A stretch of 64,000 nucleotides of DNA from Alphaproteobacteria bacterium (lineage in GTDB: Bacteria; Pseudomonadota; Alphaproteobacteria; Micavibrionales; Micavibrionaceae), in the NCBI GenBank assembly GCA_020442385.1, contig JAGRKE010000015.1, forward strand, positions 34,170 through 98,169, given 5' to 3'. Shown here piece after piece: positions 34,064-60,875 of this stretch; position 1 is the stretch's first letter; each line of letters begins with the position of its first letter. Made by a program: the position numbers and the translations under genes. The notes beneath the pieces were generated by a model, which searched no databases, had not been told where the DNA came from, and saw only the letters and a list, made by a program, of their open reading frames with translations.

Positions 34064-34351
34064 GAAAGTTACGCTCAGCAGGGGTTGAAAAATTAAGAAT
34101 AAGGAAGACCAGCGCGGGTGGCTGCCCCTAGAGGATAACAAATCCGTGGACATAAAAACAAGTAAAAGCCTGCGTAGCGCTTTAAATTTTAACCGTTTTT
34201 ATCGACCGGCGAGCGGTTTTCCCCAGCCTAAAAAATGCAATTGTACGCAATTAACCTTTTGTTAACCTTTCTCCCATAAAAAGCCCTGATAAAAGTACGA
34301 AAAAGTACTTTTTATGCGCGATGAGCCTCTTTTAAGACTGAGTTTAAACCT

Positions 34352-39907: not shown

Positions 39908-41062
39908 TTGGCCAGAGCGAAAAAGGGCAGAAAATTGAAAATTTTTGACTGGTACATTTTCAAAAATTTGAGCATAGCGACAGTGTTTGTGGCGCTGGTT
40001 CTGACCGTGGTTGTGTTTTTAACGCAATCTCTGAAATTTCTTGAGCTGGTGATTAACGCCGGAGCCTCCAGCTCTTCCTTTTGGCTTTTAACCCTTTTGG
40101 CCTTGCCGCGCTTTATTGAAGTGATTTTGCCATTGGCCCTGATGGCGGCCACGTTGTTTCTTTATAACCGTATGACTATGGATTCTGAATTGGTTGTTGT
40201 GCGTGCGGTGGGTGCCTCACCGCTGTCTATGGCGCGCCCGGCCATAGTTTTGGGCACAATTGTTACGATATTTTTATGGGCGACGACACTTTGGGCAACA
40301 CCGGCCGCGCTGTCGAATATGCACCAGATGCGCCAAGTGATTAAGGCGCAGTTCTCCAGTCTTTTGTTCCGTGAAGGGGTGTTTAATCAGGCTGGACAAG
40401 GACTCACGCTTTATATCCGCGAACGTAGCTCCGATGGTGAAATGCTGGGGCTTATGATTCATGACAGCCGGGAAAAAACTAAAAATCCCTCAACCATTCT
40501 GGCCAAGCGCGGGGTGATTGTTGTGGATGGCGATAACCAGCAAGTTGTGGTTTATGATGGATCGCGTCAGGAATTTGACCGCAAAACCGGCACGCTTCAC
40601 CGGCTGAATTTTGAGCGCTATACGATTGATCTGCCAGAAAGCGCACCTGTTCGGCAACGCTGGGCCGAGCCGGAAGAGAGGACGTTTTTTGAATTGTTCG
40701 ATCCCGATCTTGAAAACGCCCTTGATGTTCGTAATTTACGCGAGTTTAAGGTAGAGATTCACAGGCGAATTATCAGCCCGCTTTTGGCACTTGTTTTCAC
40801 CCTGATTCCTTGCTGTGCATTGTTGCTAGGGCCGCTGGATCGGCGTGGGCAGGCGTGGCGCATTGTTTTTGCCATTGGCGGCATTGTGATTATTGAAGGG
40901 CTGTTCTTGGCGGGCTTTAACATTGCACGGCGCAGCGATGCGGGGATTGTCCTTGCTTATATTCTGGTGCTGCTGCCGCTTGGCTTCTCGTGGTTTTTGC
41001 TCAGCGGTTATGCGGATGCGTTCCGCCGCCGTTTGCTCTATAAAACGGAGGCGCGCTCATGA
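39908..41062 (+). CDS. lptF: LPS export ABC permease LptF
   Basis: 384 aa with a YjgP/YjgQ-type N-terminus YIFKNLSIATVFVALVLTVVVFLTQSLKFLELV. Divergent from pepA as is usual. Confidence 0.9.
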   Translation: MARAKKGRKLKIFDWYIFKNLSIATVFVALVLTVVVFLTQSLKFLELVINAGASSSSFWLLTLLALPRFIEVILPLALMAATLFLYNRMTMDSELVVVRAVGASPLSMARPAIVLGTIVTIFLWATTLWATPAALSNMHQMRQVIKAQFSSLLFREGVFNQAGQGLTLYIRERSSDGEMLGLMIHDSREKTKNPSTILAKRGVIVVDGDNQQVVVYDGSRQEFDRKTGTLHRLNFERYTIDLPESAPVRQRWAEPEERTFFELFDPDLENALDVRNLREFKVEIHRRIISPLLALVFTLIPCCALLLGPLDRRGQAWRIVFAIGGIVIIEGLFLAGFNIARRSDAGIVLAYILVLLPLGFSWFLLSGYADAFRRRLLYKTEARS

Positions 41063-42174
41063 AAATGACACCGACTCTGGGCCGGTATCTGGCCAAATCT
41101 TATTTTTCCAACCTGCTGGTACTGCTGTTTGCGCTGCTGGCGGTGATTTATCTTTTCGATACGGTTGAGCTTTTGCGCCGTGGCAGTAAGTTTGACGATG
41201 TCTCATTAGGTTTGATTTTACAAATGGGGCTTTTGAAATTGCCTGAGGTCGGACAAGTATTGTTTCCCTTTGCCATTCTTTTCAGCGCGATGTTTACCTT
41301 TTGGCAGCTGACGCGGCGCTATGAGTTGATTGTTGTCCGCGCGTCCGGCTTTTCAGTCTGGCAGTTTTTAACACCCGTTTTGACGGTGGCGGTTTTTGTC
41401 GCACTGCTTCAGGTTACGGCGATTAATCCAGTCGGTTCGCTGTTGATTGGAAAGTTTGATCAGCTTGAGAGCAAATATCTTAAGCGCCAAGACAGCCAGA
41501 TTGCCCTGTTTAAAGAGGGGTTATGGCTTCGCCAGGGTTTTGCGCAAACTACATCCGATGCTTCGGATGGCTATGTCATTTTGCATGCTCGCCAGATATC
41601 GCAGCCTGATTGGACGCTCAACGATGTAACGGTCTTATTCTTTAAAAACGACAATACATTTGTCCGCCGTATTGATTCTGAAAGCGCGCATCTGGATCAA
41701 GCACAGTGGGTTTTTGATGATGTTACGATGTATGAGCCGGGAAAAGATCGGATAAAGAGGTCGTCTTATATGCTTCCAACGCAATTGACCATCGCGGATG
41801 TGGAGGAGAGTTTTTCCTCGCCTGAATCCATGTCGTTTTGGCGGCTGCCGGGACATATTCAAACGCTGGAGGAGACAGGGTTTGATGCCAGCCGTTTGCG
41901 TGTGCATTATCACAATTTACTCTCTCAGCCCTTGATGTTTGCGGCGATGATTTTGCTGGCGGCGGCTGTCTCTATGCGTCCACCGCGATTTAACGGCGGA
42001 ATGGCCTTAATCGGTATTGGCGTGTTTTTGGGGTTTTTCGTCTTTTTCATGTCGAGCTTTTTGCAGGCGTTGGGCGCGTCACAACAAATTCCGATCGTGC
42101 TGGCGGCCTGGGCACCGGCGATGATCTGCTTTTTGCTAGGTTTGACGGTTATGATGAATCTTGAGGATGGCTAG
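41059..42174 (+). CDS. lptG: LPS export ABC permease LptG
   Basis: 371 aa, paralogous architecture to LptF, overlapping start. Confidence 0.9.
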   Translation: MKMTPTLGRYLAKSYFSNLLVLLFALLAVIYLFDTVELLRRGSKFDDVSLGLILQMGLLKLPEVGQVLFPFAILFSAMFTFWQLTRRYELIVVRASGFSVWQFLTPVLTVAVFVALLQVTAINPVGSLLIGKFDQLESKYLKRQDSQIALFKEGLWLRQGFAQTTSDASDGYVILHARQISQPDWTLNDVTVLFFKNDNTFVRRIDSESAHLDQAQWVFDDVTMYEPGKDRIKRSSYMLPTQLTIADVEESFSSPESMSFWRLPGHIQTLEETGFDASRLRVHYHNLLSQPLMFAAMILLAAAVSMRPPRFNGGMALIGIGVFLGFFVFFMSSFLQALGASQQIPIVLAAWAPAMICFLLGLTVMMNLEDG

Positions 42175-42393
42175 GGATTTGGCATTGTTCACGCATTTCC
42201 AATGCATTAGAATGTATCTCAACAAATAAATGGTGGGCTTAACGTTTTGGTAATAAAGTCGTGATTAACTGTAGGCTCAAACGCGGATTTCCTCCGTAAA
42301 TTTAATCCTTCAAGATTTTACTAAAGAGTTGACTTAACACACAAAATAGAACAGATATATGGGGCGCGTTTGTGCGCGAAATGGGAAAAGACT

Positions 42394-43158
42394 ATGAAAT
42401 ACGGCACAAAAACAATTTTTAATGTGGCTTTAGCGCTTGTTGTGAGCGCTTTCTTGGCTGGTTGCGCGGGTGATTCATCCAATCCTTACGAGGTGAGCGA
42501 TCCGTTTGAGGGTACGAACAGAGCCATATTTTCTTTCAACAACGCGGTTGACCATGCCGTTATTAACCCGACCATCAGGGGCTACCGCGCTGTTGTACCA
42601 CGTCCGGCGCGTAATGGCGTAAATAACTTCCTTATCAATTTGAAAAGCCCCGTGCGTTTCGGAAACCAGCTTTTGCAAGGTGATCTTGAAGGCGCAGGAA
42701 ATGAATTTGTCCGCACCAGTGTGAACACGCTTTTGGGTGTTGGCGGTATTTTTGATTTGGCCGGTTATGAAGGCCTTGAATATGAATCAGAAGACTTTGG
42801 TCAGACTTTGGCCGTTTGGGGTGTTGGTCACGGGCCGTATCTGGTTGTACCGTTCCTCGGCCCGTCATCGCTGCGTGACTATGTCGGGTATGCGGTTGAT
42901 TCATTCGTTGATCCTTTGAATATGTATCTTCGTAATACAGGCAGAGACGGTGTCTTCTATGCTCGTCTTGGCGCAGAATACTTCAACTTGCGCGACAACT
43001 TGGTTGATGTGCTTGAAGATCTCGAAGCCAGCTCGGTTGATTATTATGCGGCTGTTCGCAGCACATACTACCAAAGCCGCGATGCTTTGGTGAAAGATCA
43101 GTCCAGTTCAGTATCGGCTGGTCCGGCAATCCCGGATTTTGACAGCGAAGATTATTAA
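42394..43158 (+). CDS. mlaA: MlaA/VacJ-family lipoprotein
   Basis: Lipobox LAGC. NRAIFSFNNAVDHAVINPTIRGYRAVVP...LLGVGGIFD. The likely start is ATG 42394; the track start is 42370. Confidence 0.9.
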   Translation: MKYGTKTIFNVALALVVSAFLAGCAGDSSNPYEVSDPFEGTNRAIFSFNNAVDHAVINPTIRGYRAVVPRPARNGVNNFLINLKSPVRFGNQLLQGDLEGAGNEFVRTSVNTLLGVGGIFDLAGYEGLEYESEDFGQTLAVWGVGHGPYLVVPFLGPSSLRDYVGYAVDSFVDPLNMYLRNTGRDGVFYARLGAEYFNLRDNLVDVLEDLEASSVDYYAAVRSTYYQSRDALVKDQSSSVSAGPAIPDFDSEDY

Positions 43159-43246
43159 AAGTTTCTTCTTGAACTATTAAACAGACACGCTAATTTCTTA
43201 TGGGTCATAATTTTTTATGACCCATTTGATGTGAGGAGATATCACA

Positions 43247-43912
43247 GTGACAACTAAACGTTTTTCTAAATCCACCCTTTTGGCGTTAACAACGGCCATT
43301 TTGGTTTCCGGCGCGTATCCCGCGCAGGCTTTTATCAAGGGTATCGATCATAATTCACAAACTCCGCTGACACTGCACGTTGCAGATGACGCGCACGTTC
43401 AAGGAGCACAAAACTTTATTGATGGCGTTGCTAAGCGTGGTATCGGTTTTTTGAGCAATGAATCTCTATCCGAGGCGCAGCGCGAAAAAGAATTCAGACA
43501 GTTGCTAAATGACAGTTTCGATATGAACACGATTGCCCGTTTTGCTTTGGGCCGTTATTGGAAAAGTGCGTCTGAAGCGCAGAAAAAAGAATATCTCAAA
43601 CTGTTCCAGGCCATGATTGTCGAAGTTTATACCGCCCGTTTTTCTGAATATAACGGCCAGGCTTTAGAGGTTGTAAGCGCGCGCGGGGAAGGTGATTCCG
43701 ATGCAATCGTGACATCGAAAATTGTTCCTGCAGAGGGTAAGGACGTGCAAGTTGATTGGCGCGTACGCCACAAAAATGGACGCTATAAGGTCGTTGATGT
43801 TGTTGTGGAAGGTGTCAGTATGGCTCTAACGCAACGTTCGGATTTCGCGTCTGTGATTCAGCGCGGCGGCGGCAATGTCGAGGTTTTGCTCGAACACCTG
43901 CGCGCGTCTTAA
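43247..43912 (+). CDS. mlaC: MlaC/Ttg2D-family periplasmic phospholipid-binding protein
   Basis: 221 aa with a signal peptide and ARFALGRYWKSASEAQKKEYLKLFQAMIVEVYTARF. Confidence 0.85.
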   Translation: MTTKRFSKSTLLALTTAILVSGAYPAQAFIKGIDHNSQTPLTLHVADDAHVQGAQNFIDGVAKRGIGFLSNESLSEAQREKEFRQLLNDSFDMNTIARFALGRYWKSASEAQKKEYLKLFQAMIVEVYTARFSEYNGQALEVVSARGEGDSDAIVTSKIVPAEGKDVQVDWRVRHKNGRYKVVDVVVEGVSMALTQRSDFASVIQRGGGNVEVLLEHLRAS

Positions 43913-52457: not shown

Positions 52458-52727
52458 TCTACCGCACTTGCCGCCTGAATTTTAGCGAAATTCTTATTTA
52501 TTTTACCATCATTCGCGCACGTCGTGCCAATCTACCAGTCATAATTCTGACAGAATTTGGTTAAGAGTTTGTTATGAAATGGCTAAATATCACCTGAATG
52601 TGGCGCGGGCGATATTTGTAAGTCATTGATATATAACAATTTTTATTTCAACCAAAACTGAAATTTAAAAAGACGGCAGAGGATTTCGCGATTGTAGTAA
52701 TAGGAAGAACACATTATCATTCAACCG

Positions 52728-53285
52728 ATGATACGTATCCTCATGTTTTTACTCGTTTTATGGTCTGTTCCCGCGTTCGCGCAGGCACCTGCGAAAACCG
52801 TGATCCATGACGCGGTGGAGGCGGAGTTGCTGCTGGGTAAGCATTTGTTTACTAGTCTTGGTTTAGAACGCGATCTTCATTATACACGCTACGGTGAGTC
52901 AGTTATCTACAAAAAAGACGGTGTTTATTATATGTATGCGGGCCAGATCAGGTTTCATGAAACAAGAGAAGAGCCGTATCGCGGCGGCGGTTATATCATT
53001 GCCAAAGGGACGATCACCGAAATCAAACACAAGGAATTTGTGTTTGAAGGGGTGATTGAAACCCAGACGCTGCAAGGACACGAGTGGTATCCTTGCGTGC
53101 GCACAGGACGATTTATGTTTAGCCGTGATCACGATGATGAGACACAATATGAGCATGATGTTGATTTCTGGCGTTATAATAATGGCTCAGAAGATTATAA
53201 GAGATGTGATCCAAGATCAGATTACTTAGGTATTGATATGTATGTTGATGATATTTTACATGTCTATAATTTTACTGATCCATAA
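52728..53285 (+). CDS. secreted hypothetical protein
   Basis: 185 aa with signal peptide MIRILMFLLVLWSVPAFAQA. No family recognised. AT-rich. Confidence 0.6.
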   Translation: MIRILMFLLVLWSVPAFAQAPAKTVIHDAVEAELLLGKHLFTSLGLERDLHYTRYGESVIYKKDGVYYMYAGQIRFHETREEPYRGGGYIIAKGTITEIKHKEFVFEGVIETQTLQGHEWYPCVRTGRFMFSRDHDDETQYEHDVDFWRYNNGSEDYKRCDPRSDYLGIDMYVDDILHVYNFTDP

Positions 53286-53593
53286 ACTGGAAATATCGGT
53301 TTCGTTCTGCCTCTCCGTTATATTTTTCGTCTCTGAACTTTTTCAGAGCCCCAAGGAATATTTTTTTCTTCTTTGGATCTTTGGCGACATCACTGAGGCC
53401 TCTTAAAGTTTCTGAACCAGCGCTTGCTTTTTCTGGGCGGTCAATTTTGACATGTTTGTTGCGGTGTATCGTGGCTTTTGGGCGGGGTGTTGACGGTTTC
53501 CTGAAGCAGATGCAGTGCGCGCATAATGCGGAAATGCCCTTCCATCATTTCATTGAGGCAATAAAGCAGGATTTCACGGTCTTTTTCGGTCAT
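53272..53593 (-). pseudogene. small gene apparently split by a +1 frameshift (about 106 aa if repaired)
   Basis: Frame A runs from ATG 53593 to TGA 53441 and encodes MTEKDREILLYCLNEMMEGHFRIMRALHLLQETVNTPPKSHDTPQQTCQN. Frame B is open for 90 codons from 53544 to TAA 53272 but has no usable start codon. It reads ...HVKIDRPEKASAGSETLRGLSDVAKDPKKKKIFLGALKKFRDEKYNGEAERNRYFQFMDQ. Confidence 0.3.
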
Positions 53594-53638
53594 TTAAGGA
53601 ATTCTGGTACTTATGTGTACAAGAAAGCATGTTCACAT

Positions 53639-53839
53639 ATGGACATGAGTTTGGCAAGACGTTTGGCAGATAATTTAAGAAAAAGGCGTAGCGGCAAAAC
53701 GCAGGAAGTTTTTGCGCGTAAGTTAGGCATTAGTCGCGTCAGTTTGACTCGTATCGAGAATGCGGAACAAAACGTCTCTCTCAAAACGCTGCAACAGCTC
53801 TGCAAAGCCCTCAAATGTGATATCGGCGATTTGTTTTAA
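53639..53839 (+). CDS. XRE-family helix-turn-helix regulator (66 aa)
   Basis: MDMSLARRLADNLRKRRSGKTQEVFARKLGISRVSLTRIENAEQNVSLKTLQQLCKALKCDIGDLF. The upstream part of track ORF 53381..53839 is unlikely to be coding. Confidence 0.75.
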   Translation: MDMSLARRLADNLRKRRSGKTQEVFARKLGISRVSLTRIENAEQNVSLKTLQQLCKALKCDIGDLF

Positions 53840-53847
53840 GTGATAAA

Positions 53848-53872
53848 CTATTTCTTCTCCAGCAGGCCTTTT
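53848..53872 (-). repeat. 3-prime tail module, copy a
   Basis: Plus strand CTATTTCTTCTCCAGCAGGCCTTTT, which on the minus strand is AAAAGGCCTGCTGGAGAAGAAATAG and encodes ...KGLLEKK stop. Confidence 0.7.
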
Positions 53873-54384
53873 AAGTCTTTAAGGCGAGAGCGATATTCAT
53901 TGTCACCAATGGGGTCCCAATACCCTTTAATGGAATCATCTTCGGAAGATTTTACTTCATCTTCCACAAGGCCAATATAAATCACGCCCGTTTGCATATT
54001 TGAACCTGGGCCGTTATCTTCGCCCTGCGTAATAACTCTGAGATATTTGTGTTTTCCATTCGTAAAATAAAAATCACAATATGCCGTTCCCATGCCTGTA
54101 CATGCGCCCAATTCTTCATATCCTAATTTTAGAAACGGATGCAGATGGCCGTATTTTTCAATGTCATTTTGAATAATCTCATCCCGAAAATCAGTCGTAG
54201 GTATCCAACCGCTTTTTAAAATGATTTTTCGTGCGTCATGGTAAGGCATGTTCATGGTAATAATTTCTTCGCTCTGTTTGATACAGGCAGAGAGTATACA
54301 CAACCCTAATATGCAGAAAACTATACATCGCCTTGTGAAATTATTTTGGATCTTATCATTCAACATAAAGATAAACATATCCAA
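53848..54384 (-). CDS. lipoprotein, paralogue of 54822..55229 (candidate periplasmic immunity-type protein)
   Basis: Lipobox ILSAC. Shares MNMPYHDARKIILKSGW.P, LGYEE...CTG.G...C.FYF.N.K..YL with the other copy. Has an extra C-terminal tail ending LKGLLEKK. The true start is probably an internal ATG just after TTG 54384. Confidence 0.65.
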   Translation of the reverse strand: MDMFIFMLNDKIQNNFTRRCIVFCILGLCILSACIKQSEEIITMNMPYHDARKIILKSGWIPTTDFRDEIIQNDIEKYGHLHPFLKLGYEELGACTGMGTAYCDFYFTNGKHKYLRVITQGEDNGPGSNMQTGVIYIGLVEDEVKSSEDDSIKGYWDPIGDNEYRSRLKDLKGLLEKK

Positions 54385-54388
54385 AAAA

Positions 54389-54419
54389 CTATTTCTCCAA
54401 CAGGTCTTTTACGGTTTTG
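54389..54419 (-). repeat. 3-prime tail module, copy b (out-of-frame relic)
   Basis: CTATTTCTCCAACAGGTCTTTTACGGTTTTG. It would encode ...ARKALIDLKTVKDLLEK stop in a frame different from the overlapping 54409..54762 ORF. Confidence 0.7.
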
Positions 54420-54762
54420 AGGTCAATAAGCGCTTTACGAGCCAAGTACCCAACGTGGCGATTTGTAATGGCAGCAAAGCATAAAAGAAGAGATATATGA
54501 CCATAATATAAAACATGGGTTTCCAAATGCAGACTTGATCGTTGACTGTAGAGTAGATGTCATGCCATCGGGGCTGATACCCTTTTTCCATGTAAGCGCA
54601 TAAATCTTGTCCCGCGTTGTCTCCTAAAAAAGCCCATGAAGCAAGAGCTGAAAACGCCAAAGCCAGCACAATTGTGCTTAAAAAAACATAGCGCACGATG
54701 TTATTTTTTTCTGGTCCAGGGTTTGTTTTTATAGGCGTGGCCAATTTCTTTTCCCATCTCAT
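54409..54762 (-). CDS. small membrane protein (2 predicted TM)
   Basis: 117 aa with VRYVFLSTIVLALAFSALASWAFL and MFYIMVIYLFFYALLPLQIATLGTWLV. No family recognised. Confidence 0.5.
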   Translation of the reverse strand: MRWEKKLATPIKTNPGPEKNNIVRYVFLSTIVLALAFSALASWAFLGDNAGQDLCAYMEKGYQPRWHDIYSTVNDQVCIWKPMFYIMVIYLFFYALLPLQIATLGTWLVKRLLTSKP

Positions 54763-54821
54763 TTACATTTTCACGGCCGGTTGAATTCCAGATTGATCCG
54801 ATTTTTTCGGGTGTTGGGTTT

Positions 54822-55229
54822 TTAATCAATTTCATAGCGAATAGCGGCATAGACAATCTTTGTTTGGATTTCGAAGTGGGGGTCTGGATATTCCCCACTC
54901 GTACCAAGTTTTAGATACTCACCTTTTTCATTTTGAAAATAAAATAAGCAGGCCAGCATGCCTGCCCCTGTACAATCAGAAACCTCAGCATAACCCAGAT
55001 CCCGAAAATAATGTGCAGCAGCTCCTATCTCATCGTATGGCGGCATACCGTCTGCAGGTTTCCATCCACTTTGCAAAATAATTTTTCGTGCGTCATGATA
55101 ATTCATATTCATGATGATGGATTGATTGTTCGCTTCTTTTGCGTAGGTACAAGATGTAAGCAAGAGCAGTGCCAGAAGCCCAAAATAGCTAAATGAAACA
55201 GCATTTTTCTGTTTAAAAATATTATTCAT
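54822..55229 (-). CDS. lipoprotein, paralogue of 53848..54384 (candidate periplasmic immunity-type protein)
   Basis: ATG 55229. Lipobox LLTSC. MNMNYHDARKIILQSGWKP and LGYAEVSDCTGAGMLACLFYFQNEKGEYL. Starts 21 nt after the GH104-like stop. Confidence 0.65.
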   Translation of the reverse strand: MNNIFKQKNAVSFSYFGLLALLLLTSCTYAKEANNQSIIMNMNYHDARKIILQSGWKPADGMPPYDEIGAAAHYFRDLGYAEVSDCTGAGMLACLFYFQNEKGEYLKLGTSGEYPDPHFEIQTKIVYAAIRYEID

Positions 55230-55250
55230 CAAGACATTTATAGCTCTAAA

Positions 55251-55283
55251 CTATTTCTTCTCCAACAGGTCTTTTACGGTTTG
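55251..55283 (-). repeat. 3-prime tail module, copy c
   Basis: CTATTTCTTCTCCAACAGGTCTTTTACGGTTTG. It encodes ...QTVKDLLEKK stop of the GH104-like gene. Confidence 0.7.
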
Positions 55284-55883
55284 ATAATCAGTCAATGCTC
55301 TGTTGTTTAGAATACCTTCATAACGGCTTTTATTGGAGGGGTCTGGTGGCAATGCTGCCCATTCATCAGAGAGATTTTTGATCAATGCCTCCGTACTAAT
55401 CTTACCGGCTTTATATTTCTCGAACCCTCTGTATTCCATGCGTGCTCTGGCCAGTTGATCTTGAAGCTTTTTATCAAAGAGCGCACTTTCATCAACGCCA
55501 AGCTTATCAGCGGCCTCTTTTAAGGTGTTACGCCTAAACTGGTATCGCCCAACAGCTGAAGATCCCCTACCTTCATCAATCATCTCTTTTTGAAGTTTTT
55601 GAACTTTTTTAAGCGTCATTGTGGTCAGGGGCTTTTCTTCGTTGCCATAGATAATATTATAATTATCGCTGCTTTCCAGTTTACCGATGAAATCGAGAAT
55701 CTCGTTGCCTTTGCGGGTTGGGGAAATGGTCTCGGGTTTGTGTGCGGGGGCGGGCGGTTGGCGCTCGCCTTTTCTGCGTGGCACGGGCGGGGCGGTATTG
55801 CGGATCATCCGGCCTGTGGCATCCACATTTTCAGGCAGCTGGCCAAAGCCGCCAATGCGTAAATCATCCTTATTCCAAGGCAT
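55251..55883 (-). CDS. lambda-R-like (GH104) lytic transglycosylase/muramidase with Pro-rich N-terminal extension
   Basis: IGKLESSDNYN, AVGRYQFR, FDKKLQDQLA and EWAALPP parallel the lambda R motifs LAWSEGT, GAGRYQLL and IWASLPG. ATG 55883 has an AAGGAA RBS. No signal peptide. Confidence 0.7.
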   Translation of the reverse strand: MPWNKDDLRIGGFGQLPENVDATGRMIRNTAPPVPRRKGERQPPAPAHKPETISPTRKGNEILDFIGKLESSDNYNIIYGNEEKPLTTMTLKKVQKLQKEMIDEGRGSSAVGRYQFRRNTLKEAADKLGVDESALFDKKLQDQLARARMEYRGFEKYKAGKISTEALIKNLSDEWAALPPDPSNKSRYEGILNNRALTDYQTVKDLLEKK

Positions 55884-55953
55884 GGTTTTATTCCTTTCTT
55901 TCCAGATACAAAAAAGCGCCCGGCGAAACAAAGCAACGCTTTGTTCGCGTCTT

Positions 55954-55985
55954 AAAAAAGCAAAAGCCCCATTTTTGGGGCTTTT
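55954..55985 (-). terminator. intrinsic terminator after ettA
   Basis: Stem AAAAGCCCC (55962-55970) / GGGGCTTTT (55977-55985) with a U-run on the minus strand. A second hairpin lies at 55923-55948. Confidence 0.75.
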
Positions 55986-56049
55986 CAGATAGACTCGGGG
56001 CGTATTTAAGGACTATATTCCTATATATTGATCAGAATGTCAAGACTTT

Positions 56050-57818: not shown

Positions 57819-58703
57819 ATGGCTAGAAAAGACCCAAACGACCTTTCTGGTTTTGAAATAATGAAAGAGTCAAAGGACGGCAATGTCCCCACTCCTGCTT
57901 TAGAGAAGTTTTCAATTGCTTTTAATAAACTACAAGAAGGCCGTGTAACCTTTAGTACAAAGTTCAATCGTAATATCCATGGAGATAGAGACGGTAATAT
58001 GAGTGTCGGGCCGCTTCTTATATTGCTCGATACTGTATCTGGAGTACCTGTTTTTTCCAAGCTTGATAAGAACCATATATGTGTAACCCGAAGTTTGGAT
58101 ATTACGTTTCCAAAACCCATAAAAAAGCTTATCGGACATATAGAGGCAAAGGGGTCTATTCTTCAAATGAGCGAAGATGGCAGAGAAGCCGTTGGTAAAG
58201 CGATTCTAAAAAGCGAAGAGGGAGAAAGTTTTGCTGTTGCAGAGGCACAGATGGCTATTCGCAAGAAAGTTAACTTTTCTTTTCCTCATTTTGATTTGTC
58301 GGAAATGAATATCGCGCCGTTAGGCTCTAAGGAGTATGGATCTTTTATTGATCATTTGGGGATCGTATTTTCTTCTGATAGGGCTACCAGTATGAAACCA
58401 GTGCAATCCATACATAGTAATCGTATGGGGTTTCTTCATGGCGGTGTTACGGCATCTTTTTTAGCATGCTCGGCGCAATATGAACTCCAAAAAAACAAAC
58501 CCAAGGATGAATTTATAATTCGCCATTTGAATATTGAATACAAAAAACCGATTAAGCCAGAGGACGGCATAATTTATGCGTTAACGGATATTGAGCCTCA
58601 GAAGGGATCAAAGCACTGTGTGCGTGTTCGTGTGTGCCATCAAAAAGGAAAAACAATGCTGGCTGAGGGTTTTGCTGTATTTGAACATCTATCCTTGATT
58701 TGA
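57819..58703 (+). CDS. double hotdog-fold (PaaI-type) thioesterase-like protein
   Basis: 294 aa. Two halves each carry an N..G..HGG/GPL....LD...G-type motif (NMSVGPLLILLDTVSG and MGFLHGGVTASFLACSA). AT-rich. Confidence 0.5.
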   Translation: MARKDPNDLSGFEIMKESKDGNVPTPALEKFSIAFNKLQEGRVTFSTKFNRNIHGDRDGNMSVGPLLILLDTVSGVPVFSKLDKNHICVTRSLDITFPKPIKKLIGHIEAKGSILQMSEDGREAVGKAILKSEEGESFAVAEAQMAIRKKVNFSFPHFDLSEMNIAPLGSKEYGSFIDHLGIVFSSDRATSMKPVQSIHSNRMGFLHGGVTASFLACSAQYELQKNKPKDEFIIRHLNIEYKKPIKPEDGIIYALTDIEPQKGSKHCVRVRVCHQKGKTMLAEGFAVFEHLSLI

Positions 58704-58887
58704 AAAATGAAAAAATGCGCGAAATAAAATTATAAAATTCCGTAAATTAAGTTGACATAAAAAATAGGATATGTTCTAGTTTCTCACCCAAATGAAACAG
58801 GAGTCATCAATGCCCCCTCAAGATCTAAAAGTAGATTTTGATAACGCCGAATTTCATGTTCCAAGTGTGAATGATAGGGTAAAAGAG

Positions 58888-59490
58888 TTAAAACCCGTTC
58901 TCAATAAAGACCTCTTCATTATCGATATACCCGCCTTTGGGGCGTGCGGGCTCAATGCCTTTACCAACCACAACAATCATACAGACCACGTGGTCGGATG
59001 GTAGATTGATAAGCTCTCCCACTGCCTCAGAGTCAAAGCCGATCATCGGGCAGCTTTCATATCCCATCGCGCGGGCGGCGAGCATGAGTGTTTGCGCGGC
59101 TAGACCGGCGGATCGCATGGCTTCATCGCGTTGCTGCCAGTCTTTGCCTTCATAAAATTCGATAATTTTAGGCACATACATATCGCTGATCTCTTTGGGA
59201 TAATTCACCATGTAGCGCGCCGGGTCTTTGGCATAGGCGCTCAAGTCACCGCATACAACATAAACCAGCGATGCATCGGTGATTTGCGCCTGCCCCCAGG
59301 CCACGTCGCGCACCTTTTGGCGTAGCGCGGGATCGGTCAGCTTCACAAAGCGCCAATTTTGTGTGTTAAAGGAGGTCGGCGTCTGGCGTACCAAATCCAT
59401 CAATTCTTGCTCTTGCTCTGGTGGAATTTGAAATTTCGGGTCGTAATGTTTAACGGCGCGGCGCGTGCGGATGGCTTCGAATGTATGCAT
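58888..59490 (-). CDS. nitroreductase-family NAD(P)H oxidoreductase
   Basis: 200 aa with RRAVKHYD, TSFNTQNWRFV and ESCPMIGFD. Confidence 0.85.
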   Translation of the reverse strand: MHTFEAIRTRRAVKHYDPKFQIPPEQEQELMDLVRQTPTSFNTQNWRFVKLTDPALRQKVRDVAWGQAQITDASLVYVVCGDLSAYAKDPARYMVNYPKEISDMYVPKIIEFYEGKDWQQRDEAMRSAGLAAQTLMLAARAMGYESCPMIGFDSEAVGELINLPSDHVVCMIVVVGKGIEPARPKGGYIDNEEVFIENGF

Positions 59491-59646
59491 GGTTTTAATG
59501 TTCCAAAGAGTGATTTCACCTTAAAACCTAAAGCCCCGGAGAAAATAATCAAGACCGATAAGTGCGGTGGATGAAAATCAATTCAGACTTGAAAAAAACC
59601 AACTGGTCGGTAATATGGGTAAGAAGCTTACTGAAAGGGGATTTCC

Positions 59647-60243
59647 ATGGCACAGGCACGGCGCAAAACCACACAAAATAAAATTATCGAGAAAGCGGAA
59701 AAACTGCTCTGGCAGCAAGGCTATGAGGGGACATCTCTCAACGATGTGGTTGGCAAAGCCGGGGTGAGCAAGGGCGCGTTCTTTCATTATTACCCGAATA
59801 AGCAGGCAATTTCGCAGGATGTGATTAACAAGTACAGCCGCGAGCAACTGGTTGCGCCGCTGGAAAAACGTCTGGCTGAGGCGTCCACGGTTAAGAACGG
59901 CCTGTTTAATTGGGTGAGTGAATTTTTTGAAACATTCAAGAGCCATAACTTTAAGGGCGGATGCTTGCTCGGCAATATGGCGCTGGAGCTTTCCGATCAA
60001 AATGAGGCTGCCCGCGAGACGATCAAACAGCATTTTCTCGATCTTGAGAACATTATCGCCTCGGCCTTAAAGCCCTTAATGGATGATGGGAAACTGTTTA
60101 TGGAGCCGCGCCAGCTCGCGCGCCTTTTGATTGCCTCTTTGCAGGGCGCAACTATGATGAGCAAGGTTCATAAAGACAATAACCGCGCCAGCCGCGAATT
60201 TCAGGCTATTGCGCATCTGATTGAATATGCGATTAAGGATTAG
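59647..60243 (+). CDS. TetR/AcrR-family transcriptional regulator
   Basis: 198 aa with GYEGTSLNDVVGKAGVSKGAFFHYYPNK HTH. Divergent from the nitroreductase. Confidence 0.9.
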   Translation: MAQARRKTTQNKIIEKAEKLLWQQGYEGTSLNDVVGKAGVSKGAFFHYYPNKQAISQDVINKYSREQLVAPLEKRLAEASTVKNGLFNWVSEFFETFKSHNFKGGCLLGNMALELSDQNEAARETIKQHFLDLENIIASALKPLMDDGKLFMEPRQLARLLIASLQGATMMSKVHKDNNRASREFQAIAHLIEYAIKD

Positions 60244-60245
60244 GT

Positions 60246-60875
60246 TTATTTGAAATTATAGTCAGAAAGGGTACAGTTTGGCCCAACGACTGTGAAACGT
60301 GATTTAAAATTATTTGGTATGCTTCCGTTTCCATCTGATATTTTCCAGGCGATATACTGCCATTTCGATAAAAGATTAATAATCTGGTCTTCATTTTTGA
60401 GGTCGGAAAGCGGTAACTCCTGTGCAACCCATTTTCCGTCTGTTGCCGTTTTAAATTGTCGTGTTAGAGACCATTCGCCGTTATGAAGCTCCGCCATAAG
60501 CAGGCAAGGCGTATCTTTAAACTCTTCGGGTATCTTTGGCAGAGAATAATCTTCGCAGTTTCCCAGCTTTTTAACAACGTCAATTTTGCTGCCTTTTTCA
60601 AAAAATTTGGTAAGTAACGGCCATCTTGACGCGCCATTCTTTGCGGGCGGGGTGTTAGTGTTCGTTGTTGGTGTGAATGGAGATTTTTCTGAATATATTC
60701 CCTGACTTTGAAGCTGTTTTTTTATTAAATATGTGCTTTTAATTCCAAGGTTATTGGATTTTTCGGTGTGTCCATTCGAAGCAGCGCTTTTCCCGCGGCC
60801 TTGTGCTTCAAGGCGGGCCTGCTTTTTATCTTTTTGCTGTTGTTGCTTTTTGTGGCGACCTTTTTGTTTAGTCAT
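60246..60875 (-). CDS. hypothetical protein with highly basic Lys/Gln-rich N-terminus
   Basis: 209 aa starting MTKQKGRHKKQQQQKDKKQARLEAQGRGK. AT-rich. No family recognised. Confidence 0.5.
   Translation of the reverse strand: MTKQKGRHKKQQQQKDKKQARLEAQGRGKSAASNGHTEKSNNLGIKSTYLIKKQLQSQGIYSEKSPFTPTTNTNTPPAKNGASRWPLLTKFFEKGSKIDVVKKLGNCEDYSLPKIPEEFKDTPCLLMAELHNGEWSLTRQFKTATDGKWVAQELPLSDLKNEDQIINLLSKWQYIAWKISDGNGSIPNNFKSRFTVVGPNCTLSDYNFK

Follow-up and report, generated by a model that had tools for sequence, protein, structure and literature searches.

The polymorphic toxin framework, as known from contact-dependent inhibition (CDI) and Rhs systems, reportedly includes orphan cassettes that join a toxin tip to an immunity gene (CdiA-CT/CdiI). 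We analyzed a comparable arrangement in a 64,000-nucleotide stretch of DNA (hereafter the window; positions 34,170 to 98,169 of contig JAGRKE010000015.1, GenBank assembly GCA_020442385.1) from an alphaproteobacterium of the Micavibrionaceae. An AT-rich islet (window positions 52458-56049) lies there between the gene ettA and an operon of three DotA-like genes, referred to as the triplet, and encodes a peptidoglycan hydrolase (F), two lipoproteins (E and C) and a protein with two transmembrane (TM) segments (D). The islet is probably a horizontally acquired array of toxin/immunity cassettes belonging to a polymorphic family, and this family is confined to Micavibrio-like Alphaproteobacteria. 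The logic of such systems is known from CDI/Rhs, X-Tfe/X-Tfi and Tge/Tgi pairs; new here are the lack of a trafficking part, a partner fold without a known match, and a promoter and leader of the family's own.

Like CDI and Rhs loci, the family combines a shared N-terminus with swappable C-terminal toxins, downstream partners, orphan partners behind toxin fragments, and a short junction motif (here DATGRMIR) between the constant and variable parts. Its members differ in being small (160-420 amino acids, aa), in lacking a recognised trafficking domain and in having a conserved promoter and leader hairpin, while the toxin stumps of the islet keep toxin 3′ ends and not the conserved 5′ junction. 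The bacteria-killing type IV secretion system of Xanthomonas citri is said to employ X-Tfe/X-Tfi pairs. In these, as in the islet, peptidoglycan hydrolases, often with a peptidoglycan-binding domain and without a signal peptide, are encoded beside lipoprotein immunity genes; however, the islet proteins have no XVIPCD C-terminal domain (no Pfam match), the constant part is N-terminal, and neither a VirB-type system nor linkage to secretion genes is found, the type IV search of the genome having covered DotA/TraY. The Tge/Tgi pairs of type VI secretion systems likewise unite peptidoglycan-hydrolase effectors with immunity partners, but the trafficking part of such systems is missing here.

Polymorphic toxins with a MuF domain are reportedly carried by temperate phages. 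They resemble the present family in that one member encoded in the source genome (that of the window) joins PG_binding_1 to Phage_Mu_F, and in that toxin modules lie inside a phage-like cluster in two genomes, whereas F has no MuF domain and most modules lie outside the cluster. The T4 gp5 tail lysozyme has a periplasmic inhibitor, Spackle; there, as with F and E, a lysozyme domain of the virion type has a small exported protein at its side that could block the enzyme, but E has no similarity to entries of the PDB and F is a free-standing chromosomal gene. The R lysozyme of phage λ, a GH104 lytic transglycosylase, has motifs that resemble those of F (a Glu in the first helix, G-R-Y-Q and W-A-x-L-P), although the match is not significant and the significant phage matches of F are mostly tail, baseplate, tape-measure or lysozyme proteins. 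In the predator Bdellovibrio, wall-degrading DD-endopeptidases (Bd3459/Bd0816) and a self-protection protein (Bd3460) have been described (PMC4686830), and the gene of the enzyme stands beside that of the protector, as is the case for F and E. Those enzymes are endopeptidases with signal peptides, while F is a predicted glycosidase without one, and their protector has an ankyrin fold, which E does not. A literature search on Micavibrio with DotA or "polymorphic toxin" returned nothing on such a system.

Islet genes and insertion site

The islet and its borders contain the following features, given by position in the window:

52458-52576, minus strand: ancestral ettA-triplet spacer with the triplet promoter region, outside the insertion; aligns with the ettA-DotA1 spacer of the relative G015, including TGGTAAAAT
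52577-52727, no strand: left border of the insertion, with the DNA upstream of gene A; window-specific in the spacer alignment
52728-53285, plus strand: gene A, secreted 185-aa protein, family PF27214 (PM1083), with the Sec signal MIRILMFLLVLWSVPAFA; divergent from the triplet
53272-53640, minus strand: two adjacent open frames, unverified; neither has a family or homologue
53642-53839, plus strand: XRE/Cro-type helix-turn-helix (HTH) protein, 65 aa; HTH_3, E-value 1e-13; similar to the PADLOC "control protein", E-value 1e-9
53848-54384, minus strand: C, lipoprotein of the E/C family, second orphan immunity-type gene; lipobox LSAC, C-terminal extension ...LKGLLEKK
54392-54463, minus strand: stump of an F-type toxin gene, out of frame and covering its last ~24 codons; 38-nt repeat common to the 3′ end of F
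54409-54762, minus strand: D, 2-TM protein with two Cys in its loop, orphan immunity-type partner of an SLT-like toxin; homologues follow toxin 2
54704-54826, minus strand: stump of a "toxin 2" gene (PG_binding_1 and SLT-like lytic transglycosylase), comprising its last 41 codons; 33/41 residues identical to the L022 protein
54822-55232, minus strand: E, lipoprotein, probable cognate inhibitor/immunity protein of F; lipobox LTSC, adjoins F homologues in 16/16 loci
55251-55883, minus strand: F, intact lysozyme-like peptidoglycan hydrolase, 210 aa; PHROG 90, E-value 4e-19
55923-55985, minus strand: leader with two hairpins (55985-55962, followed by a T-run, and 55948-55923; z = -3.05), the first of which presumably also ends ettA
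56011-56049, minus strand: promoter of the toxin family; TTGACA (56043-56038), 17-nt spacer and GAATAT (56020-56015), inside ATAGGAATATAGTCC

This inventory, drawn from open reading frames (ORFs) and family searches, agrees with an earlier, sequence-only reading of the window, which had listed a secreted protein, an XRE regulator, a hydrolase, two lipoproteins and a 2-TM protein. Its "frameshifted small gene" exists as two adjacent open frames, which cannot be confirmed as a gene because neither has a homologue or family. The only family-search matches among the islet proteins were to HTH families for the XRE protein (Pfam, NCBIfam, PADLOC) and to endolysin PHROGs for F; Pfam, NCBIfam and PADLOC gave no match for A, C, D, E or F, and PHROGs none for A, C, D or E.

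The islet (about 52577-56049) is a horizontally acquired insertion located directly after the ettA stop codon, at a hot spot of accessory genes. The drop in base composition that had been noticed by eye was confirmed by a windowed calculation: the G+C content of positions 52458-56049 is 41.7%, compared with 50.6% for the genome (1.9 Mb), 48.0% for the triplet and 54.3% for ettA, and only 0.5% of the genome's 3592-bp segments are as AT-rich (0.5th percentile). The G+C content at third codon positions (GC3) is 0.34-0.48 in the islet genes and 0.50-0.64 in their neighbours. In five relatives (G016, G022, G005, G015 and G010) the 3′ end of ettA is separated from the first DotA-like gene by 170-230 bp, with tag and/or a terD pair following, and none of the islet genes is found at this junction. 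Two others (G031 and G009) have different fillings there, including low-GC accessory genes, among which KAP-NTPase-like and MazF-like genes were recognised by eye. Since five relatives lack the islet genes at this site and others carry different fillings, the islet is a lineage-specific insertion at a hot spot. No direct repeats flank it, and neither an integrase nor a tRNA gene was seen inside (repeat check and family searches).

An AT-rich islet beginning immediately beside the triplet promoter had been proposed, and the islet itself stands, but its leftmost ~120 bp (52458-52576) align with the G015 spacer and are thus ancestral triplet-promoter DNA. A second AT-rich patch, across ettA (window 57819-60875), is also variable among relatives. 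It contains genes for a double-hotdog protein (GC3 0.35), a nitroreductase, a TetR regulator and a 209-aa ORF (GC3 0.38); in G015 ettA directly abuts tag, and in G010 only the TetR gene lies between them.

Hydrolase F and its lipoprotein partner

F has no hydrophobic N-terminus and no signal peptide, in agreement with its earlier description as a hydrolase without a Sec signal. Residues 13-68 are Pro-rich and predicted by the structural model to be disordered. The family N-terminus reads MPWNxDDLxIGGFGQ..QNVDATGRMIR, followed by a Pro-rich linker and PETISPT; Glu86, GRYQ and EWAA of the catalytic domain are invariant in the family, and the C-terminus ends in ..KDLLEKP. Longer members have an additional N-terminal PG_binding_1 domain, and none of them has a signal peptide. 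F looks active, given its lysozyme-like fold and the invariance of both the catalytic-type Glu and the motifs. For the proposed "GH104-like" label the support is marginal: the family profile matches λ lysozyme (1am7/3d3d) at an E-value of 0.02, and neither Pfam nor NCBIfam gives a match.

The best Foldseek match of F was a cyanophage baseplate protein (probability 1.0, E-value 0.011), and those to lytic transglycosylases (only E-values > 0.4) and to an i-type lysozyme were weak. The F domain occurs in sequenced phages at 31-41% identity; for most of the proteins listed the annotation is tail lysozyme, baseplate hub, tape measure or tail fibre/lysozyme, and for some it is endolysin or lysozyme. 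Homologues sharing 47-76% identity with F are encoded by other uncultured Alphaproteobacteria, several of them metagenome-assembled genomes labelled Micavibrio. Elsewhere in the source genome (C14:67765-74532), a 529-aa fusion of an F-like muramidase and an M23 peptidase is encoded together with two acidic coiled-coil proteins, a secreted SLT-like protein and an NlpC/P60-like protein, between genes of 2-oxoglutarate dehydrogenase/succinyl-CoA ligase and malate dehydrogenase.

The lipoproteins E and C are paralogues (39% identity, E-value 3e-27), and members of their family consist of a lipobox and a ~100-residue domain with two invariant Cys. A gene of this family directly adjoins the close F homologue, in co-directional or convergent orientation, in all 16 loci for which downstream DNA is available; it is absent beside the distant F-like genes of Saccharimonadales, Limnocylindria and Maritalea. 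The structure of E was modelled as a confident, compact α/β fold (pLDDT 84), which, with the lipobox and the two Cys, would fit a periplasmic binding protein. Foldseek found no match for it in the PDB (best E-value 0.35), a profile search of PDB sequences gave nothing meaningful, and no sequence or fold similarity to known lysozyme inhibitors or immunity proteins (Ivy, PliC/MliC, PliI, PliG, Tsi/Tgi, Spackle, X-Tfi) was detected for E or C with Pfam, NCBIfam, PHROG, PADLOC, PDB profiles or Foldseek. No E-like protein is encoded in 50,697 sequenced phage records, and plasmids yielded two weak matches, with uninformative neighbours on an Acinetobacter plasmid.

Toxin-gene remnants and putative orphan partner genes

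The minus-strand order of the islet is intact F, E, a toxin-2 stump, D, an F stump and C. The toxin-2 stump (54826-54704) is identical in 33 of 41 residues (80%; translated comparison) to the C-terminus of an intact 420-aa protein encoded at L022:9478-10740, in which PG_binding_1 is followed by C-terminal SLT-type motifs (WVENARGHYG..NIEAG); SLT_2 is weakly matched by a sister protein in L024. The start of D lies inside this stump, and the same overlap is seen in L022, where a D homologue (53% identity) follows the intact, full-length toxin. In L024 another toxin 2 has a gene behind it that matches D less well, and D-like 2-TM genes occur in the modules of L016 and L023 (by eye, not as search matches). 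The F stump (54463-54392) stands directly before C and represents the middle copy of the 38-nt repeat; it can be aligned to residues 185-209 of F and to the C-terminal ends of F homologues. The islet can thus be read as an orphan-immunity array, in which a toxin fragment is followed by an intact putative partner gene, D or C. The possibility that D is itself a decayed second copy of F was rejected, as its own homologues lie behind the other toxin type and only its last ~70 nt overlap the F-tail stump.

Similar arrays were found elsewhere. L016 (a 236-kb contig) has the same order of lipoprotein, stump, 2-TM protein, lipoprotein and XRE protein, while in L020 the order is F, lipoprotein, F stump, lipoprotein, F stump and then a homologue of gene A (40% identity). 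The last E-family lipoprotein of L016 (12637-13200) is fused in frame to a 3′ stump of a tyrosine recombinase gene (..GHSSIKVTYDVYGHLF..), a vestige of the integrative element on which the module travelled. C is 55% identical to the product of L024:7508-8020, which bears the same C-terminal tail. This extension of the C subfamily (window 53848-53900; L024:7508-8020), ..LK(G/E)LLEK(K), is conserved and mimics ..KDLLEKP, the invariant C-terminus of the F toxins. This tail may have a function of its own or may go back to an ancient fusion with the stump of a toxin gene.

A polymorphic family with alternative C-terminal domains

The N-termini of the family consist of PG_binding_1 and/or the "GFG...DATGRMIR" Pro-rich linker, whereas the C-termini differ: F-type muramidase, SLT-like, GH108, glycine-zipper, and MuF with an unassigned domain. 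The GH108 type is found in L024, and GH108-like and GH24-like types occur in G025 (both recognised by eye). Genes of L024 either start at "..MIR" or have KDYRPKPFGEE..RLAAA in common, and diverge after that, so the DATGRMIR stretch behaves as a junction between constant and variable parts.

Three further members are encoded in the source genome at loci unlinked to the islet: one with a coiled coil and a glycine zipper (C9:102127-102978), one with PG_binding_1, Phage_Mu_F and an unassigned C-terminal domain (C6:8775-9806) and one with a short tail (C2:33171-33653). The members on C2 and C9 and both of those in G025 are each followed by a small low-GC ORF for a membrane or secreted protein; the glycine-zipper member precedes a 95-aa TM ORF of 28.5% GC (C9:102127-103116) and the short member a 130-aa ORF of 37% GC (C2:32807-33714), while the Phage_Mu_F member adjoins an integrase stump (C6:8775-9898).

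Small partners stand beside the toxin types, namely E/C-family genes by the F type (16/16 loci) and D-type genes overlapping the end of the SLT type (L022 and L024), and the stumps at 54704-54826 and 54392-54463 mark D and C as orphans. No signal peptide, no trafficking domain (Pfam, NCBIfam) and, beyond the adjacency of the triplet, no linked secretion genes were found.

Shared promoter and leader

The toxin genes of the family have a promoter in common. The 40 nt that follow the ettA stop codon are the promoter of the module and not the 3′ flank of ettA; the motif ATAGGAATATAGTCC of the window takes the form of a perfect palindrome, GGAATATATTCC, in other loci. It is conserved upstream of toxin genes in nine other aligned regions (L014, L015, L016, L020, L021, L022 twice, L028 and L030), and each of these has a hairpin with a U-run after it, including that of L022, whose stem differs in sequence but can pair. 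The source genome contains exactly four copies of the motif, each upstream of a family member that is followed by a small low-GC ORF; the promoters of the three other members have the form TTGAC-N14-ATAGGAWTAT. Among 61 related genomes, 19 contain the motif and none contains the reversed control pattern.

The two-hairpin leader of F recurs before the paralogous toxin gene on C6, and the other loci have a single hairpin with a U-run and a different stem sequence. Both hairpins that had been taken to bound the islet, as an ettA terminator and a second hairpin, do exist, but given the shared promoter and leader they are parts of the toxin leader, and the first presumably also ends ettA. A promoter directly followed by a terminator-like hairpin suggests, as a prediction, control by read-through, a layout that recalls lambdoid late promoters. 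A search of the islet against Rfam gave only a sub-threshold "rnk leader" match (E-value 0.4).

The XRE protein as repressor of the toxin promoter is not supported. The inverted repeat at the start of its gene, ATGTGTACA..TGTTCACAT (found by eye), differs from the GGAATAT..TCC palindrome, so the protein is not evidently a regulator of the toxins. An HTH_3 gene also closes the module of L016. For gene A only three relatives were found, one of which (40% identity) adjoins the F-lipoprotein module of L020; their contexts include IS1595, Imm_superinfect and a hotdog thioesterase gene, which suggests variable regions. Literature on "PM1083" contained nothing relevant.

Proposed function of the cassettes

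We hypothesize that F cuts the glycan strands of peptidoglycan. E, the product of the gene directly downstream, would be a periplasmic lipoprotein with a disulfide and would neutralise, by binding them, F-type enzymes that reach the periplasm of the producer or of a sibling cell. D would be an orphan protector against SLT-type toxins and C a second partner of the F type. Each lies behind the 3′ stump of what would be its former companion toxin gene, a stump that recombination and displacement may have left, and both genes may have been kept because they protect against the toxins of relatives. The system would serve antagonism, either in competition or in the epibiotic predation typical of Micavibrio.

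Several observations weigh against this proposal. F and its relatives have no signal peptide or recognised trafficking domain that would take them to a target. Modular phage endolysins likewise combine PG_binding_1 with a glycosidase and lack a signal peptide, and most of the nearest relatives of the F domain carry annotations as virion-associated (tail or baseplate) proteins or as lysozyme. Many partner genes are convergent with the toxin gene and not co-directional. The fold of E has no match to any lysozyme inhibitor or immunity protein, and the E/C domain is part of a broad superfamily (a profile search gave 1422 representative clusters, 488 of them below 1e-10), some distant members of which are fused to a Ser/Thr kinase or a DUF4344 peptidase, with weak PASTA matches. 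This breadth and these fusions temper the notion of dedicated immunity proteins, and the domain could be a general binding module.

Podovirus-like cluster of the source genome

A ~16-kb podovirus-like structural cluster is located elsewhere in the source genome (C17:485847-501858). It encodes a terminase, a 665-aa tail protein and a 674-aa tail spike with homologues in L029, where the tail protein matches phrog_376 (E-value 1e-144), as well as a portal, scaffold, capsid, adaptor and SleB-like hydrolase read from ORF translations. No replication genes were seen in the cluster, and a CI/LexA-like gene lies beside it; it may represent a domesticated particle akin to a gene transfer agent. The N-terminus of the tail protein is encoded in single copy in 43 of the 61 relatives, and its identity (64-95%) tracks taxonomy, which suggests vertical inheritance.

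Four toxin-plus-partner modules are inserted in such a cluster in two other genomes. In L029/G069 two F-plus-lipoprotein modules lie between tail genes, and in G025 (L038) two PG_binding_1 toxins, each with a convergent gene for a secreted protein or lipoprotein, lie between capsid, adaptor and tail genes. On this evidence the proteins with PG_binding_1 or DATGRMIR, including F, might be payload or virion lysins of a domesticated podovirus-like particle conserved across the order, the lipoproteins and 2-TM proteins Spackle-like exclusion factors that neutralise the lysin of particles coming in, and the islet a dispersed accessory locus. We regard this as unlikely, though less so than the other alternatives. 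It draws on the homology-supported terminase, tail protein and tail spike of the source genome, on the taxonomic distribution of the tail protein, on the four modules inside the cluster, on the family member with Phage_Mu_F, on the closeness of the F domain to tail and baseplate lysins and on the resemblance of the promoter-hairpin layout to lambdoid late promoters. In addition, the tail protein is present in every one of the 19 relatives that bear the toxin promoter (p = 2.7e-4 unstratified and 0.004 stratified, not corrected for phylogeny). On the other hand, most modules, including all four of the source genome, are far from the cluster, and the insertions within it could be ordinary phage "morons". 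No convincing copy of the toxin promoter was found in the C17 cluster in a relaxed search, E-like proteins are missing from the phage records, G024 has an F-like gene but no tail protein, and the particle is known here from genes alone.

As a delivery vehicle, the podovirus-like cluster would nevertheless be a better candidate than the triplet. One may suppose that Micavibrio-like bacteria keep a vertically inherited, podovirus-derived particle with the PG_binding_1/DATGRMIR family of muramidases, transglycosylases and membrane-active toxins as its payload, expressed from a shared late-type promoter with a read-through hairpin, and that arrays of lipoprotein and 2-TM genes like those of the islet protect kin against particles that arrive from outside. 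This extended version is doubtful, and slightly more so than the alternative just described; if true, it would describe a phage-tail-independent, capsid- or virion-borne weapon of an epibiotic predator.

Relation to the DotA-like triplet

The sequence-only reading had proposed that the triplet is an export or contact apparatus for which the islet supplies F as cargo, the lipoprotein genes as immunity and the XRE protein as regulator. The pairing of hydrolase and lipoprotein does look like cargo and immunity, given the adjacency in 16/16 loci and the stumps before orphan partners, but the link to the triplet is not supported, and we consider it very unlikely. In its favour are the adjacency in the window, the lack of a Sec signal in F and the presence of the triplet in every genome with an F-type module; the last says little, since the triplet is nearly universal in the clade. 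The DotA/TraY model TIGR04346 has matches in 60 of the 61 related genomes, with several copies in tandem in most genomes of family f1 and one copy in most other families of the order; in the source genome the triplet accounts for all copies found. F, in contrast, has matches in only 12 of the 61, at no more than 43% identity, at unrelated loci and never near the triplet (for example, at 489 kb versus 942-949 kb in G016 and at 227 kb versus 2278-2286 kb in G031), so that 49 relatives keep DotA-like genes without any F match. The expectation that islet and triplet travel together is contradicted by these figures and by the five relatives in which ettA lies next to the triplet without an islet. 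None of the 16 other F-lipoprotein loci is within 8 kb of a DotA-like gene, and ten further F-bearing genomes all carry the triplet, always on another contig, which means that the two features share a clade and are unlinked.

The genes on the other side of the triplet (window 39908-43912) encode LptF, LptG, MlaA and MlaC, conserved proteins of envelope-lipid transport. Near-universal DotA-like genes beside Lpt and Mla genes point to a core envelope role rather than effector secretion. Neither linkage nor co-variation with secretion genes was seen for the family, and no known type IV secretion signal was recognised: there is no XVIPCD match in Pfam, the C-termini of the members are unrelated, and inspection revealed no C-terminal signal common to them. 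The genome paper on M. aeruginosavorus likewise found no type IV secretion system outside integrative conjugative elements (PMC3189940). The islet thus appears to have landed beside the triplet by chance and not to be its cargo module, and export through the triplet would be without support.

Less likely readings: prophage lysis and cell wall remodelling

The islet could also be regarded as a decayed prophage lysis cassette, with F as endolysin, D as a holin-like and E and C as spanin-like proteins and the XRE protein as a Cro/CI remnant, an idea about as improbable as export through the triplet. F does match endolysin PHROGs (PHROG 90, E-value 4e-19) and lacks a signal peptide, its long forms have the PG_binding_1 and glycosidase layout of modular endolysins, and a small 2-TM protein and lipoproteins are present; moreover, an integrase stump is fused to a lipoprotein gene in L016 and a phage-type primase gene adjoins the module in L023. 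Yet no typical holin and spanins within a prophage were found at the islet, no other phage-type gene was seen among the genes examined within ~12 kb on each side, and most homologous modules stand among housekeeping genes. D accompanies the SLT-type toxin instead of F and, unlike a holin, has its place downstream of it; E and C consist of globular disulfide domains of ~100 aa without a C-terminal TM segment or the proline-rich character of an o-spanin. Paralogous lipoprotein genes separated by toxin stumps are atypical of lysis cassettes, and C-termini of the glycine-zipper or MuF type are unfit for an endolysin.

Scarcely tenable is the notion that F is a housekeeping enzyme that remodels the cell's own wall, with the lipoproteins as regulators or anchors: many F homologues do lie between ordinary metabolic genes and the E/C superfamily includes sensor-like fusions, but the patchy spread (12/61 relatives, at most 43% identity), the foreign base composition, the toxin stumps and duplicated partner genes, the missing signal peptide of F and the variable C-terminal domains, including non-enzymatic, membrane-active types, all argue against it.

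Significance

The tempting link between islet and triplet being unsupported, the function of the triplet is to be sought elsewhere, and its fixed neighbours are the Lpt and Mla genes. The genome paper on M. aeruginosavorus notes only "peptidoglycan binding proteins" on genomic islands (PMC3189940). Under the favoured explanation, that of horizontally acquired toxin/immunity cassettes, such island proteins would belong to one polymorphic family of co-regulated toxins, wall-degrading or membrane-active, that have dedicated partners, among them an uncharacterised lipoprotein fold and orphan-immunity arrays. The family offers testable enzyme-inhibitor pairs, a conserved promoter and leader and a candidate delivery vehicle, and it bears on how epibiotic predators such as Micavibrio damage other cells yet avoid damage to themselves.

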